Assembly: GCF_003018255.1 (NCBI RefSeq)
Contig: NZ_CP027440.1
DNA length: 64,000 nt
Reading direction: 5' to 3' (one strand)
From: Escherichia coli
Lineage (GTDB): Bacteria; Pseudomonadota; Gammaproteobacteria; Enterobacterales; Enterobacteriaceae
The position numbers and the translations under genes are program-made. This document shows, in pieces, positions 2,119 through 57,241 of the stretch. The notes beneath the pieces are model-generated. The model searched no databases and had not been told where the DNA came from. It saw nothing but the letters and a program-made list of their open reading frames with translations. Positions within the stretch are counted from its first letter, which is position 1; every line of letters starts with the position of its first letter.

Positions 2119-4074
2119 TTATATTATCACTCCATTGCCCGCCTCTTCTGATGGCGGGCTTTTTTTCGGCGCTCTCTTGCGTGGCGAATCCTTTTTCTTC
2201 CCTTCTCCACCGCCGGGAGCCATTATTCCCCGAAACTGCCTTACCGACGTGCGCTTTGCCTGATCAATCAACTGGTACAATGTCCCCACCAGCGGCTGCA
2301 TAAAGTCCTGATAGCGACACTGCTTTTCGCTGATTTGCGTCAGCACCGATTCCCAGTGCGCGGTCATGTCCGGTCGCGTCGCCATTTCTGGCAGCGAATG
2401 GAATAGCGCTTTTCCGGCGTCGGTGGAGTGGATATAGCGCCCTTTTTTGGTCAGGAAGCCTCGCTTGAACAGCAGTTCAATAATCCCGGCGCGAGTCGCT
2501 TCTGTCCCCAGACCATCGGTCGCACGAAGGATCTTTTTCAGATCTTTGTCCTGCACAAAACGTGCTATCCCGGTCATCGCTGAAAGCAGTGTTGCATCGG
2601 TAAAATGGCGCGGCGGCTGGGTTTGCCGCTCTACCACTTCACCTTTTTCACACAGCAACTCATCGCCTTTCGCCACCACAGGCAGCGGCGTGCCGTCGTT
2701 TTCTTCATCGCGCTCTTTGCTGCCTAACAGTGTGCGCCAGCCTGCTTCAGCAAGAAAACGGGCTTTAGCGACAAATTTGCCTTTGGCAATGTCCAGTTCG
2801 ATAACACACTTGCGGAACACCGCATCCGGGCAGAACTGCATCAAATACTGACGGGCAATCAGGTTATAGACCTTCGCTTCGTTCTCCGTCAGGTTGATCG
2901 CAGAACTCCGTGCGGTCGGGATGATGGCGTGGTGCGCATCGACTTTTTTGTCATCCCAACAGCGGTTGCGTATATCTGGATCGACCACTGGCTGCGGCAA
3001 CAGATCTGGTGCATGAACGCTGATAGCATTCATCACCGCGTGGCGTCCGGCAAAATGTTCTTCTGGCAAATAGCGGCAATCGGAACGCGGATAAGTGATT
3101 AGCTTGTGCGTTTCGTACAGCTTCTGGCAGATATCAAGCACGTTCTGCGCGCTCAGACCAAAACGTTTAGCCGCTTCAATCTGCAACGCCGAAAGCGAAA
3201 AAGGCAGCGGCGCGGATTCTGATTCCCGTTTATCGTTATAGCTGGTGACAATAGCTGGTTGACCACTAATGCGGTTAACCACATGCTCCGCCAGTGGACG
3301 ATGTAATAAGCGCCCTTCTTCATCCTGGTACGGTTCACACGCTTCGCTCGGTTGCCAGATAGCGGTAAACCGCTCATCGGCAGGTGTCACGATATGTGCT
3401 TTGACTTCAAAGAAGTCTTTCGCCACGAAGTTTTCAATCTCTTCGTCGCGGCGCACCACCAGTCCGAGTACGGGCGTCTGCACGCGTCCCACGGAAAGCA
3501 CGCCCTGATAACCGGCATTGCGACCGAGAATGGTATACGCACGGGTCATATTAATGCCGTACAGCCAGTCAGCTCGCGCACGCGCCAGTGCAGAAACGCA
3601 CAGCGGTACAAACTCGCTATTGGAGCGAAGACGATCGATCGCCCGCTCAACCGCCTGCGGGTTCAGGTCGTTTATCAAACAACGCTGTACCTGCTGGCGC
3701 TTTTCCGGTGCCAGTTGCAGGTAGTCCAGCACTTCATCCACCAGCAGTTGCCCTTCGCGATCCGGGTCTCCGGCGTGAACGATTTCGCTGGCTTCATGCA
3801 GGAAGCGTTTGATGACATTAAGTTGTTTAGTCACGGAGGGTCGGGGCTGTAATTGCCACTTTTCCGGGACAATCGGCAAATCCGCAAGATTCCAGCGCGC
3901 ATAGCGGCTGTCGTAGGCGTCTGGCTGCGCCTGCTCAAGCAGGTGACCGATACACCAGGTCACCACCTGACCATTACCGCACTCGATAAAGCCATCGCCT
4001 TTCCGGTGCGGTTTAGGCAGGACATCAGCAATGGCGCGCGCCAGACTCGGTTTTTCGGCAATAAACAACCGCAT
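2119..4074 (-). CDS. topB: DNA topoisomerase III
   Basis: Track ORF 2119..4131; start placed at internal [10 protein letters not shown] (recalled TopB N-terminus), giving 651 aa; Toprim/topo IA motifs; lysine/arginine-rich C-terminal tail. Confidence 0.92.
2137..2166 (+). terminator. Rho-independent terminator downstream of gdhA (lies inside the 3' end of the topB ORF)
   Basis: gcccgcc-tcttctgat-ggcgggc followed by TTTTTTT. Confidence 0.65.
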
Positions 4075-4078
4075 TGAA

Positions 4079-5122
4079 TTAACGGATCTCAACCATGGCA
4101 CGACCGCCGCGCGCTGGCACCAGTTCGCCAATCGCCGTCAGTTCAATGCCAAACTCGGCGGCTGTAGCTTTGACCTCATTTTCTGCTTCCGGCATGACCG
4201 CCAGCAGCAAACCGCCAGAAGTTTGCGGATCGCACAGCAGTTCGCGCACTTCACGCGGCATTTCACCCATCAGATGACCGTAGCTGGCAAAGTTACGTTC
4301 GGTGCCGCCAGGCACTGCGCCCAACTTAATGTACTCTTCAACCCCCGGCAATTTCGGGATCGCGTCATAGTCGACGCGCGCCTGCACACCTGCGCCCTGA
4401 CACATTTCGCTTAAATGCCCCAGTAAACCAAAACCCGTAACGTCGGTCATCGCTTTTACGCCTTCGATGTTGGCAAAGGACGCGCCTGCGATGTTCATCC
4501 GGCACATCACTTCCGTCGCCAGTCCCTGATGTTCTGGTTTCAGCAGTGATTTTTTCTCAGCCGTGGTAAGAACGCCAATCCCCAGAGGTTTCGTCAGGAA
4601 CAGTTTGCATCCGGCTTGTGCGGTACTGTTTTTCTTCACCCGCTCGGTAGGTACGATCCCCGTTACCGCCAGACCAAAAATCGGCTCCGGCGCATCGATG
4701 GAGTGACCGCCAGCCAGCGCAATACCCGCCTGACGGCATGCATGGCGTCCACCTTCGGTCACTTCGCGGGCAATTTCCGGGGAAAGTTTGTTAATCGGCC
4801 AGCCGAGGATCGCAATCGCCATAATCGGTTTGCCGCCCATTGCGAAGATATCGCTGATGGCGTTAGTCGCCGCAATGCGGCCAAAATCGAAAGGATTATC
4901 AACGATCGGCATAAAGAAGTCGGTGGTGCTGATAACGCTGGTGCCATTGCCCAGATCGTACACCGCCGCATCGTCGCGGGTTTCATTACCCACAAGCAAA
5001 TTCGGATCAACAAACTTCGCCTGCTCACTGTGCAGGATGGTTTCCAACACTTTTGGGGAAATTTTACAGCCGCAACCAGCGCCGTGGCTGTATTGGGTCA
5101 AACGAATCGAGTTCTCGCTCAT
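4079..5122 (-). CDS. selD: Selenide, water dikinase (selenophosphate synthetase)
   Basis: Start at [20 protein letters not shown] (347 aa); stop 5 nt upstream of the topB start, consistent with a selD-topB operon. Confidence 0.95.
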
Positions 5123-22283: not shown

Positions 22284-22452
22284 AGTATGCCCCCGGGAGA
22301 TAGTTGTTTTCACGTTATTGTTAGCGTGCGCAAATGGCAGTTTGATGACAGTTCGCCTGATTTTTTATGCAAAAAACGTAAAGATTTTCTACTTCCTTCC
22401 TGCAGCAAGCGTAAAGTAAGCAGGCTTATTATTCTTTGGCAAGGAAACCACG

Positions 22453-54004: not shown

Positions 54005-54571
54005 ATGAATATCACTGCTACTATTCTTCTTGCGTTTGGTATGTCGATGGATGCATTTGCTGCATCAATCGGTAAAGGTGCCACCCTCCATAAACCGAAA
54101 TTTTCTGAAGCGTTGCGAACCGGCCTTATTTTTGGTGCTGTCGAAACCCTGACGCCGCTGATCGGCTGGGGAATGGGCATGTTAGCCAGCCGGTTTGTCC
54201 TTGAATGGAACCACTGGATTGCGTTTGTGCTGCTGATATTCCTCGGCGGGCGAATGATTATTGAGGGTTTTCGTGGCGCAGATGATGAAGATGAAGAGCC
54301 GCGCCGTCGACACGGTTTCTGGCTACTGGTAACCACCGCGATTGCCACCAGCCTGGATGCCATGGCTGTGGGTGTTGGTCTTGCTTTCCTTCAGGTCAAC
54401 ATTATCGCGACCGCATTGGCCATTGGTTGTGCAACCTTGATTATGTCGACATTAGGGATGATGGTTGGTCGCTTTATCGGCTCAATTATTGGGAAAAAAG
54501 CGGAAATTCTCGGCGGGCTGGTGCTGATCGGCATCGGCGTCCAGATCCTCTGGACGCACTTCCACGGTTAA
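54005..54571 (+). CDS. mntP: Manganese efflux pump MntP
   Basis: Start at [19 protein letters not shown] gives 188 aa. Confidence 0.9.
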
Positions 54572-55377
54572 TAAGAACGCTGCCAGAGGTGAATATTAAA
54601 GTCCGTCTGGCAGTCGAACACTTCTTTTGCTGCCAGTGTTTGCCAGACTTCTGGCTTCGCACGCCAGGCAAACGGCGTCATCTGCAATAATGCGACGGCT
54701 TCATCACCGCGAAGACGCATCGGATAACACAACTCATCACTCTGCTGTAATGTAAAACCTTCGAGTTGTTCTGCATGTGGTGCATGAAGATGTACTTCAT
54801 TGTAAATCAGCCCCTTCAGCTCCATCAAATGTCGCGGTCCCGGCGTGGCAGTAATGACCCAACCGCCAGGCTTCACTACTCGCGCTAATTCTTCTGCTTT
54901 ACACGGCGCGTAAATACGTATTATGGCGTCCATACTGGTATCGGAAAACGGCAAACGGTGGCTGGAAGCAACACAAAAAGTGACCTGCGGATAGCGTTTC
55001 GCCGCCGCTTTTATCGCAACCTTCGAAACATCCAGACCAAACGTGGTGATTTCGGGCAACGCATCGGCAAATGCGTGTGTGTAATACCCTTCACCACAGC
55101 CAATATCCAGCACCGCCGTGGCCTTTTCATCAAGCCGTTCCCGCAGTTGGGCGACAATTGCATCACGCAGCGGCTGATAATGTCCGGCATCTAAGAATGC
55201 GCGGCGTGCTTGCATCATTTCCGCGCTGTCGCCCGGATCACGAGACCGTTTATGCTGAACGGGCAGCAGATTGACATACCCTTCTTTCGCCATATCAAAC
55301 TGATGTCGCTGGGGACAGATATAGCTGTTTTTTTCACGCGAAAGAGGCTGATGGCAAAGTGGACAGGAAAACGACAT
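54568..55377 (-). CDS. rlmA: 23S rRNA m1G745 methyltransferase RlmA
   Basis: 269-aa ORF with N-terminal Cys4 zinc motif and SAM-binding GCGEGYY. Confidence 0.92.
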
Positions 55378-55470
55378 GACAACTCCGGCAGGATACTAAA
55401 GGCCGCAAGTGTAACGCGAATCACGCGGCGGGCAAATATCCGAACGACTGGAGCGAAGATAAAGCAAAGT

Positions 55471-55497
55471 AAAAAGCCTCGCATTCGACGAGGCTTT
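55471..55497 (-). terminator. Rho-independent terminator of cspC
   Basis: On the minus strand: agcctcg-tcgaatg-cgaggct followed by TTTTT. Confidence 0.75.
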
Positions 55498-55542
55498 ATA
55501 GCGAGATTGAAGCGTATTCACACTTCAGATCAGTGGATTCGA

Positions 55543-55752
55543 TCAGATAGCTGTTACGTTAACAGCTGCCGGACCTTTCTGACCGTCCTGAATTTCGAAC
55601 TCAACGTTCTGACCTTCAGCCAGAGTTTTGAAACCATTACCCTGGATAGCAGAGAAGTGTACGAACACGTCTTTGCTGCCATCAGCCGGAGTAATGAAGC
55701 CAAAACCTTTAGACTCGTTGAACCACTTAACCTGACCTTTAATCTTTGCCAT
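55543..55752 (-). CDS. cspC: Cold-shock-domain protein CspC
   Basis: 69-aa ORF with RNP motifs KGFGFI and VFVHF. Confidence 0.95.
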
Positions 55753-55764
55753 TTGAAAAATTCC

Positions 55765-55908
55765 TTAGATTGTTTTCTTCGCCCGCAGGCATAACATAGA
55801 TAAAACTGACACATTACTGCATGAGGCACCAATATAAGGCTCGGCAGAGAAGCGGTATTCAACGTCAACGTGTTTACTCAGGACTTCTTTACTGAAAATG
55901 CCACACAT
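55765..55908 (-). CDS. yobF: Small protein YobF (47 aa)
   Basis: Minus-strand ATG..TAA encoding [47 protein letters not shown], 12 nt upstream of cspC. Confidence 0.7.
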
Positions 55909-56534
55909 AAACAGAACTGTACCTCGTTTAACCCGAAATCTGTTATCACATACAACGTTAATTATGGCAAGCCATTTTTAAACATGTCTCGATCAGACGC
56001 ACAAATCTCGATACGTCTTCCACTTTTTTTGCACACTTATGCAACGGAATACGCGCCGATATATCATTGTGCTTAACCTTGCCAGTTCAGGCAGATACTT
56101 AAACTGACGTATTTTCTAACATAGTTCAATAAGTTCAGTTGTTCCAGGCCAGTGGGAGAAGTTATTACATAGTGCGTGCAATATCACATTTTCTGCTATG
56201 CAATGAATAAAAAGTTATATCACTTTTTCTCATAAAACAGTCAGTTAACGGCTATCGATCACCCCAAAGAGAAGTCAATCGCCAAAGGTATTGTAAATTT
56301 AAAATAAGAAAAATTGATGAATGCGCAAAAAAATCAAGAGAGAAACGTTTCGCTAATAAATAATACCACGCTTAATCACAAATCCGATGTAAACATCCTA
56401 ATAAATTAATGGGCTAAATATCTTTTTCTGATATCCCGTTACGCAAATAAATAATATGATAATTATTTGAAGTCAGACCAGAGTTTTAATTTGAAGCAGT
56501 TGCACCATGACAGTGCGTATAATCAGGATGAATT

Positions 56535-56562
56535 GAGTAACCCTTCAACGACGGGGTTACTC
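56535..56562 (-). terminator. Hairpin downstream of yebO
   Basis: gagtaaccc-ttcaacgac-ggggttactc, 16 nt past the yebO stop; no clear T-tract. Confidence 0.4.
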
Positions 56563-56577
56563 AAGATTGAGGAAGGA

Positions 56578-56865
56578 TTATCGTTCGGCGACCAGACGAA
56601 TAATATCTTCGTCTTCAACCGATTTTTGACTCTCAACGGTCTTTTTATCTGCTTTCTCAGGTTCGTTTGCTTCGCACAAACGACGTAACAGAGCATTTTG
56701 ACGTTTTTGCTGATCCAGCAACGCCTCAAGCAGTTCAATCTGTTCGTTAGTCCGTGAACTGGCACGATTGATAAAAAACCACAAGATAAGCCCGATAAAA
56801 AGAACCACCACCGATACAACCAAAGACGCAATGTTCATCACGCCTGAATTTACAACTTCGTTCAT
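56578..56865 (-). CDS. yebO: Membrane protein YebO
   Basis: 95-aa ORF with N-terminal TM helix and charged coiled C-terminus. Confidence 0.85.
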   Translation of the reverse strand: MNEVVNSGVMNIASLVVSVVVLFIGLILWFFINRASSRTNEQIELLEALLDQQKRQNALLRRLCEANEPEKADKKTVESQKSVEDEDIIRLVAER

Positions 56866-56939: not shown

Positions 56940-57083
56940 TCACCACGGGATAAACTGGTTAATGGCACAAATTCCGCTGAAAAATTGTACATCCTGATCG
57001 CACATCATGTTGAATACCTGCGCCCAAAGCAGCAAGCAAGCCAACACCACGACAACCAGAACGACCCATCGAAACTTTTTCAC
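56940..57083 (-). CDS. mgrB: PhoQ-inhibitory small membrane protein MgrB (47 aa)
   Basis: Minus-strand GTG..TGA encoding [47 protein letters not shown]. Confidence 0.8.
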
Positions 57084-57241
57084 TCCAATCTCCGTTTCAC
57101 CTACCTTATGTCATTAAACTAGCATGCGTTAGTTAAACAGCGCCTAACTATGTCGATATTCGTGCTTTTTCAGAATGAGTCGCTTGCTTCAGCGCATATT
57201 GCCGCTACGATTAAGCGAACATAAAAAGAGAAGAGGTTGTA

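Follow-up and report, generated by a model that had tools for sequence, protein, structure and literature searches.

The AT-rich spacer between yebO and yobF in Escherichia coli is probably a composite control region and carries a conserved operator-like distal module

The genes yobF and yebO of Escherichia coli are separated by a spacer of 669 bp, located at positions 55909–56577 of the 64,000-nucleotide stretch of contig NZ_CP027440.1 that was analysed here as a whole (the window), and flanked by yobF (55765–55908) and yebO (56578–56865), both on the minus strand. Its counterpart in MG1655 (NC_000913.3, 1907592–1908260; MG1655 coordinate = window + 1,851,683) has equal length and is unannotated. 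We propose that the spacer is probably a composite intergenic control region, which joins the regulation of yobF–cspC to the end of the yebO mRNA and contains no hidden gene. Most of the spacer is explained already, with one moderately interesting and testable addition. The features of the locus are listed by window position, with transcription start sites abbreviated as TSSs, open reading frames as ORFs and untranslated regions as UTRs.

54568–55377, minus strand: rlmA (ORF list)
55543–55752, minus strand: cspC (ORF list)
55765–55908, minus strand: yobF (ORF list)
55909–56007, minus strand: proximal promoter region with short leader (alignment, mapped TSS, promoter scan)
55970–55942, minus strand: proximal sigma-70 promoter TTGCCA-17-GATAAC, TSSs at 55933/4 (-25/-26)
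55990–55961, minus strand: overlapping sigma-70 promoter GAGACA-18-CATAAT, TSS at about 55956 (-48; promoter scan)
56029–56044, minus strand: block D, consensus GCATAAnnGTGC, in E. coli TTGCATAAGTGTGCAA, holding the RNA 3' end at 56033 (block conservation)
56112–56147, minus strand: block C, CTGGAA to GAAnTTATTGAnCTATGGTAGAAAA (alignment A2)
56178–56225, minus strand: block B, consensus TTTATGCATTAC to AAGCATAAAAAGTGATAT (alignment A2)
56287–56380, minus strand: conserved distal module of about 75–95 nt (alignments A1–A3)
56339–56354, no strand assigned: RbsR-type operator-like palindrome, read on the minus strand as AGCGAAACGTTTCTCT, centre at 56346/7
56381–56534, no strand assigned: AT-rich filler, GC about 0.31, aligning to Escherichia only
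56535–56577, minus strand: yebO 3' UTR with a 28-nt stem-loop at 56562–56535 (fold and Term-seq)
56578–56865, minus strand: yebO (ORF list)
56940–57083, minus strand: mgrB (ORF list)

A preliminary description of this DNA regarded the spacer as an AT-rich non-coding stretch of about 670 bp and as the longest ORF-free interval of the window, and both statements hold. The GC content is 0.357 against 0.497 for the whole window, a value that only 0.8% of the 669-bp windows equal in AT-richness, and the lowest GC part is found at 56301–56404 (0.288). The largest ORF-free stretches of the window fall here with cut-offs of at least 50 amino acids (56077–56466) and at least 75 amino acids (55869–56522), and no gap between annotated genes is longer in a collinear E. 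coli record, where the 669 bp of the spacer compare with 435 and 428 bp. The A/T tracts, which were also pointed out, are modest in this AT-rich DNA, as only two homopolymer runs reach six nucleotides (T7 at 56024 and A7 at 56327). The spacer belongs to the core genome, since a 1-kb query centred on it matches 5,423 of 5,426 complete E. coli genomes.

For comparison, 80 orthologous loci of Enterobacteriaceae were retrieved with YebO, of which 76 entered a blastn profile and 21 sequences formed alignment A2. The conservation is distributed as a mosaic, which consists of an invariant proximal promoter of about 100 bp, three upstream blocks (B, C and D), the distal module, and a filler that is present only in Escherichia. 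The proximal part (55909–56007) can be aligned by blastn in 76 of 76 loci and is nearly invariant in the 21-sequence alignment. Published 5' ends, obtained by rapid amplification of cDNA ends (5'-RACE) and 454 reads, place the TSSs of yobF at -25/-26, which is 55933/4 in the window, with a -35 element GGCTTGCCA; a genomic SELEX study (gSELEX; systematic evolution of ligands by exponential enrichment) of RpoD names TTGCCA-17-GATAAC as the yobF promoter. The overlapping promoter GAGACA-18-CATAAT fits the Salmonella yobF 5'-UTR reporter clone, which begins at -48. Both promoters show hexamers at a spacing of 16–18 bp, as expected for sigma-70, upstream of the mapped TSSs in the one case and of the clone start in the other, and an in vitro RpoN-holoenzyme peak at 1905652 (about window 55945) falls on the same region. 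The Shine–Dalgarno region of yobF is the target of the small RNAs (sRNAs) OxyS and CyaR. At this end of the spacer, an invariant double sigma-70 promoter thus produces a leader of 25–48 nt that carries the sRNA-targeted ribosome-binding site.

Because the TSSs are mapped at -25/-26 and the clone starts at -48, the main leader is short, and promoter and leader together account for only about 100 of the 669 bp. The expectation that the spacer holds the yobF–cspC promoter together with a long 5' UTR is therefore correct for the promoter and incorrect for the main leader.

Three further observations concern the proximal region. An invariant CRP-like half-palindrome, TGTGCgtctgaTCGAG, is located at 56003–55988 on the minus strand (centre 55995.5); its right half is weak, and its centre is at -61.5 and about -41.5 from the two proximal yobF start sites. 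An invariant AACGTT (TTAACGTTGT; 55954–55959, minus strand) overlaps the -48 start site, and as this is the central hexamer of LacI-family operators, it could be either a partner of the distal box or a coincidence. Downstream of the spacer, a Term-seq 3' end lies inside yobF at window 55796 (MG1655 1907479), 44 nt before cspC.

Transcription is not confined to the proximal promoter. Term-seq (Adams et al. 2021) detected an orphan minus-strand 3' end at MG1655 1907716, 125 nt upstream of the yobF ORF. It corresponds to window 56033, upstream of the proximal promoter and inside block D. In one of three conditions it has 264,852 reads; the sheet concerned, which gives 46,490 reads for the yebO end, probably represents LB medium at an optical density of 2, judged from its other entries. 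Part of the spacer is transcribed, because this 3' end on the minus strand is abundant; on the plus strand no Term-seq 3' ends are listed between MG1655 1907600 and 1908199. In Salmonella 4/74 an upstream TSS of the operon (1893683) has been reported, which the tabulated Tn5 positions place 181–390 nt before the yobF ATG. The RpoD gSELEX study describes a "670 bp spacer" that serves one transcription unit, shows several RpoD-holoenzyme peaks and carries an H-NS flag; the peaks in its supplement at 1,905,768 and 1,906,230 correspond to about window 56061 and 56523 (conversion of +1976, checked against the fadD/yeaY peak). The spacer region thus gives rise to some transcript that is longer or independent, and the picture of a single continuous yobF–cspC leader with no other transcript does not agree with the orphan 3' end and the Salmonella upstream TSS.

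One way to unite these data would be a single far-upstream promoter, followed by a long structured 5' UTR of the cspA thermoregulator type that fills most of the spacer. It would accommodate both the Salmonella TSS and a minus-strand 3' end inside the spacer, and the yobF–cspC transcript does match the cspA thermoregulator family of Rfam (RF01766, 139.7 bits against a gathering score of 78). We nevertheless consider it unlikely, as the match (55468–55928, minus strand) covers cspC and yobF and, starting at 55928, overlaps the spacer by 20 nt only, while the mapped TSSs of E. coli are at -25/-26 and conservation is found in short blocks and is not continuous. In the region 56225–56020 a structured RNA was rejected: single-sequence folding is no better than that of shuffled sequences (z from +0.4 to +1.6), and alifold gives a 4-bp hairpin and no other conserved structure.

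The upstream blocks offer more probable origins for the additional transcripts. Block C (ending in TTGAnCTATGGTAGAAAA) is fixed 205–216 nt before the yobF ATG, Klebsiella and Raoultella included, and contains a -10-like C-TATGTT (56124–56118) with C at -13 and CTGGAA 17 bp upstream. Read as a -10 element (C-TATGGT), it defines a candidate promoter, PC, with a predicted TSS at about 56111 (-204), and the RpoD peak at about 56061 accompanies it. When the Salmonella TSS is set at -204, the two Tn5 insertions assigned to the 5' UTR are located at -32 and -23, and the one in cspC hits codon 63. We infer that this fit to three Tn5 positions is self-consistent and not unique, since block B and the module promoters also lie in the allowed range; block C, with its predicted TSS at -204, is the best candidate for the Salmonella upstream TSS. 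Block B contains in Escherichia a TATAAC (56219–56214) and an extended -10-like TGTGATATT (56188–56180), which make it a candidate promoter or transcription-factor site, and the similarity of Salmonella and Citrobacter to E. coli starts abruptly at 56210–56223. Blocks B and C would probably supply additional upstream start sites. A comparison by eye of blocks C and E with the consensus sequences of sigma-54, sigma-E and sigma-32 gave no convincing match.

Transcripts started upstream would partly end at 56033, directly before the proximal promoter. A terminator scan identified neither a terminator hairpin nor a U-tract at this end, and the 3' end is inside the 4-bp alifold hairpin. Because 56033 is about 20 bp before the upstream edge of promoter-bound RNA polymerase (RNAP), and because it lacks a terminator or protective hairpin, a roadblock or collision is suggested: the end would result from an encounter with promoter-bound RNAP or a bound factor, or from processing, rather than from a dedicated terminator.

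The same 3' end could belong to an independent trans-acting sRNA of about 80–250 nt on the minus strand, transcribed from PC, PB or PA. Its reads outnumber those of the yebO end in one condition, it lies within conserved block D, and promoter-like conserved blocks are found upstream. However, a search of Rfam finds no RNA family within the spacer body, the end has no intrinsic terminator and lies inside the small hairpin and not after it, neither covariation nor a stable fold is found, conservation is poor in the body between blocks C and D, and the main text of the 3'-end study does not single out this end. Of what characterises an sRNA gene, a 3' end is present, and terminator, Rfam match and conserved fold are missing; such a gene is improbable.

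A very small protein gene is less probable still, and by a wide margin. Many ORFs of 20–31 codons are present; a 22-codon plus-strand ORF (56039–56107) has the same length in four Escherichia lineages, and an ORF of 28 codons, which starts at an ATG in block C about 215 nt before yobF and ends in block D, is found repeatedly in Salmonella and in several Citrobacter (10 loci: L009, L015, L026, L028, L030, L035, L036, L043, L073 and L082). Each of these ORFs is, however, frameshifted, truncated or without a start in close relatives, and no small ORF of the spacer is conserved even among the Escherichia lineages. Across the loci the block C ORF varies from 5 to 55 codons (7 in E. coli), and its start is lost in some genera, the ATG being AAG in several; therefore block C is not coding. 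Neither the K-12 RefSeq record nor the listed E. coli records annotated by the Prokaryotic Genome Annotation Pipeline contain an annotation here. In other Citrobacter and in E. coli the 28-codon ORF is shortened to 6–7 codons, and its amino-acid sequence is poorly conserved. The suggestion that the spacer leaves room for an sRNA or a very small protein is thus supported as far as internal transcription is concerned and weakened by the missing Rfam hit, conserved structure, terminator and conserved small ORF; a classical gene of either kind is unlikely.

Upstream of block B lies the distal module, in which the order of elements is TGTGA (56380–56376), the palindromic box, Pho-like direct repeats (56323–56306) and TACAAT (56295–56290). 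The core of the box, CGAAACGTTT (56352–56343), is invariant and present in the spacer of 73 of the 80 loci. Its median distance to the yobF ATG is 455 bp, with 40 of 69 values within 452–466, regardless of an indel that holds a metallo-beta-lactamase (MBL) fold gene in part of the family; elsewhere the core has three occurrences only in 482 kb. The box closely resembles the palindrome before rbsD, the known operator of RbsR. Compared with the rbsD operator core AGCGAAACGTTTCGCT, AGCGAAACGTTTCTCT is identical in 15 of 16 positions with the same left half, and the 20-mers share 16 of 20 positions (the rbsD operator core, TCAGCGAAACGTTTCGCTGA, was read directly from the genome). A palindrome of 16–20 bp, centred on CG and with (A)GCGAAAC half-sites, as expected for RbsR, is present. 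Over 34 distinct orthologous boxes the half-site match is 0.85 for RbsR, 0.62 for PurR, 0.59 for Cra and 0.55 for MalI, and C occupies the diagnostic position -6 in every one of them. As right half-site, Escherichia, Salmonella and Citrobacter have AGAGAAAC, with 1 mismatch, and other genera have AGCAAAAC or ATAAAAAC.

It is conceivable, if doubtful, that the palindrome serves another LacI-family regulator (Cra/FruR, PurR, MalI or a paralogue), or that the module faces the plus strand, for instance as the source of an antisense transcript to yebO or the MBL gene. The central GAAACGTTTC fits the degenerate Cra consensus in all but one base, PurR is the closest paralogue of RbsR and has a similar motif, and on the plus strand ATGACA-17-AATAAA would put the box at +1, the classical position for a repressor. 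Against another regulator, position -6 is always the C of RbsR and never the T of Cra or the G of PurR, and the half-site match separates RbsR from these two (0.85 versus 0.59–0.62). Against the plus strand, the hexamers are weak in E. coli and inconsistently conserved, no plus-strand 3' end is mapped between MG1655 1907600 and 1908199, and the distance of the module is fixed to yobF, not to yebO.

Other candidates for the module were also tried. A comparison by eye with consensus sequences gave no convincing match to sites of Fur, ArgR, IHF, CytR, NtrC, TorR or PhoP. The inverted repeat TGCC...GGCA was rejected as an RNA helix: 80% of the cells pair, but what is conserved is essentially TGC...GCA, and the weak covariation (7 of 500 and 21 of 500 shuffles reach the observed values) is within the false-positive range of the tool. 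In MG1655 the perfect rbsD operator is preceded, at a distance of about 75 bp, by a second, partial RbsR-like box, AAAACGTTTCGA (locus L085, 645–660).

The second component of the module begins 31 nt downstream of the core. The Pho box, the binding site of PhoB-type promoters, has the consensus CTGTCAT-N4-CTGTCAT, and direct repeats that match at least 12 of its 14 positions are found at a fixed offset in 29 of 74 orthologous modules, where the background frequency per position is 3e-6. The E. coli repeats (CATTCAT-CAAT-TTTTCTT) match 9 of 14 positions and no longer qualify as a Pho box, whereas TACAAT follows the second repeat at exactly 10 nt, which is the spacing of the -10 element in Pho promoters. 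The Pho box thus appears to be ancestral and not current in E. coli. Orthologous modules mostly have hexamers matching 3–4 of 6 bases at the -10 position, and TACAAT marks a candidate distal promoter, PA, with a predicted TSS at about 56283. As a positive control, the best Pho-box hit of the window (13 of 14) is CTGTCATCAAACTGCCAT at 22334–22351 on the minus strand, which precedes the yoaI ATG (22283) by 51–68 nt; yoaI encodes a small membrane protein reported to be PhoB-regulated. The window contains 10 hits with at most three mismatches, compared with 4.65 expected. In the gap between mgrB and yobH, at 57108–57125 on the plus strand, there is an 11/14 Pho-like match (ATGTCATTAAACTAGCAT) about 117 nt upstream of yobH, which may be due to chance. 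We know of no PhoB binding or phosphate response of yobF–cspC.

The module looks like an apparently undescribed, ancient RbsR-operator-like site beside a decayed Pho box. It would combine a LacI-family operator of the RbsR type, Pho-like repeats and a -10 element, of which E. coli keeps the operator and TACAAT, and it would act as an activator-dependent distal promoter or as a regulatory platform that faces yobF. That the position-locked module couples a ribose-repressor-type operator and a PhoB-type site to a distal yobF–cspC promoter is a tentative proposal, and several observations weigh against it. Neither orientation of the module shows a conserved canonical sigma-70 promoter with -35 and -10 elements, a result that agrees with activator dependence or with a mere binding platform. 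The Pho-like score of 9/14 in E. coli is within chance for a search of 50 nt, and the right half-site of the box is degenerate in most genera. The targets of RbsR in genomic SELEX are reportedly rbsD, purHD, add and udk. A summary table gives 5 peaks and 3–4 targets for RbsR without naming them, so that the target count seems to be filled already and the spacer site may be unscored. The rbsR phenotype of Salmonella acts via RpoS, and a cspC mutant leaves RpoS unchanged; a link from RbsR through CspC to RpoS is therefore unsupported in Salmonella. As for upstream transcription in E. coli, the supplements of Cappable-seq and SMRT-Cappable-seq have no 5'-end entries for these genes or coordinates, and a published reporter of the region upstream of yobF was inactive and not induced at low Mg2+.

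The yebO-proximal end of the spacer has a different character. The hairpin noticed earlier just beyond the yebO stop codon (56535–56562) is confirmed by folding, with an 11-bp stem and a minimum free energy z-score of -2.5 against shuffles in a 101-nt context, and it belongs to the end of the yebO transcript: all three condition sheets of Term-seq give the primary yebO 3' end at MG1655 1908212/3 (Adams et al. 2021). This end of the mgrB–yebO mRNA (window 56529/56530) is 6 nt beyond the hairpin stem. The hairpin does not have the form of an intrinsic terminator, as its tail AAUUCAUCC lacks a U-tract and the terminator scan made no call; according to the published mapping, the mRNA 3' end is set by a stem-loop of this kind. 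Conservation of the hairpin region is restricted to Escherichia. Several further Term-seq 3' ends lie inside yebO (window 56685–56794, MG1655 1908368–1908477), one of which, 1908371, was scored as Rho-dependent.

Between the hairpin and the module, the filler (56381–56534) can be aligned by blastn to 3 Escherichia loci only. It contains promoter-like hexamers on the minus strand (TTAAAA-16-AATAAT, 56489–56462; promoter scan), and the RpoD-holoenzyme peak at about 56523 shows that RNAP binds it in vitro. At the position of the filler, 31 of the 80 loci carry the MBL-fold gene (331–335 amino acids, Lactamase_B_2, HxHxDH), which starts 17–20 bp after yebO and occurs in Lelliottia, Kosakonia, Buttiauxella, Leclercia, Phytobacter, Cedecea and some Enterobacter (for example at 3308–4303 in locus L012 and 3310–4317 in locus L029); it is absent from window 56381–56577. 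Enterobacter without the gene keep its final 60–90 bp, and because this end remains, the gene has been deleted there. A remnant of the gene in the E. coli spacer was rejected, as the best tblastn E-value is about 1 and blastn gives no match beyond Escherichia. Fast-evolving AT-rich DNA of about 150 bp, which binds H-NS and RNAP, would have been left where the MBL-fold gene sits in other Enterobacteriaceae.

These properties raise the question of whether the spacer as a whole is mostly non-functional, consisting of the remains of a gene deletion and H-NS-coated AT-rich DNA with spurious promoters, in which the blocks only reflect low mutation. The filler is unalignable outside Escherichia, a deletion is evident in the MBL-less Enterobacter, AT-rich DNA binds RNAP in vitro, and in one strain the junction of an IS1 deletion falls in the filler. 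Nonetheless, invariant 10–16-mers occur at fixed distances from yobF in about 20 genera, embedded in otherwise unalignable DNA, which is unexpected without selection, and the core is rare elsewhere. For the spacer as a whole there is little likelihood in this explanation, which applies to the filler only; for the remainder, a composite control region is preferred.

Strain variation in and around this part was also recorded. The 301 bp nearest yebO (56280–56580, comprising box, filler and hairpin) are 97–100% identical across E. coli genomes, and the region is split or truncated in about 60 of 5,423 genomes. In E. coli strain 361 (NZ_CM132949.1) a deletion associated with the insertion sequence (IS) IS1A extends from inside pdeD through manXYZ, mntP, rlmA, cspC and yobF, with its junction at about window 56511 in the filler beside yebO. 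The window and the record with a 100% match to the spacer come from different strains: the record has an extra IS200 between htpX and yebQ (window about 59960), and the first approximately 9.8 kb of the window (the ydj region) do not align to it.

Why would such an arrangement be of interest? CspC is a global RNA chaperone with effects on RpoS, on PhoP activation and virulence in Salmonella, and on the use of succinate, and the cspC operon is a mutational hotspot in ageing E. coli colonies. Only the proximal promoter of this operon has been described so far. If the proposal for the module is true, the levels of CspC and of the stress peptide YobF would respond to sugar/nucleotide status and to phosphate (or low-Mg2+) status across the Enterobacteriaceae, and transcripts that end at 56033 would also throttle the proximal promoter by transcriptional interference. 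The module would then provide concrete and testable inputs to the regulation of cspC and yobF, and it might explain the rise of YobF under Mg2+ limitation, as with PhoB-dependent YoaI. If the module is inert, the spacer still exemplifies both a conserved signal in a seemingly "empty" AT-rich gap and the loss of an MBL-fold gene that reshapes a regulatory region. Within the literature searched, three aspects are apparently new. One is the module itself, which is locked in position across the family and combines an RbsR-type operator with an ancestral Pho box; another is the set of conserved blocks B–D, of which block D contains the orphan RNA 3' end; the third is that the filler beside yebO occupies the place of an MBL-fold gene that was lost.

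Several known systems can be compared with the spacer. The yobF–cspC transcript resembles the cspA-family leaders in that it matches RF01766 above the gathering score, but that match, which covers cspC, yobF and the last 20 nt of the spacer, leaves the spacer itself unexplained. In the catalogue of Adams et al. 2021 the 56033 end is among the orphan and upstream-of-ORF 3' ends. In contrast to the cases characterised there, which include attenuators and sRNA sponges such as ChiZ, it has neither a terminator nor a known sRNA pairing site and is located upstream of the mapped gene-proximal TSS. The 847-bp cydA spacer is named alongside the yobF spacer for its several RpoD-holoenzyme peaks and shares the H-NS flag; five promoters have been experimentally defined for cydA, and for the yobF spacer the proximal start sites only.

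The two closest counterparts concern the module. The rbsD operator, a perfect 20-bp palindrome, is located between promoter and start codon, whereas the spacer site, a putative operator, has one imperfect half and is separated from the nearest gene by about 440 bp on its downstream side; both are CG-centred palindromes with the GCGAAAC half-sites of the LacI-family repressor RbsR. The Pho-box promoters of pstS, phoA, phoB and yoaI differ from the module of E. coli, in which the repeats score 9/14 and the next coding gene lies far downstream of the element. On the other hand, the module shares with them the two 7-bp repeats of CTGTCAT type with a 4-bp spacer, a -10 element about 10 nt later and the absence of a -35 element, and orthologous modules reach 12–13 of 14 positions, like yoaI.

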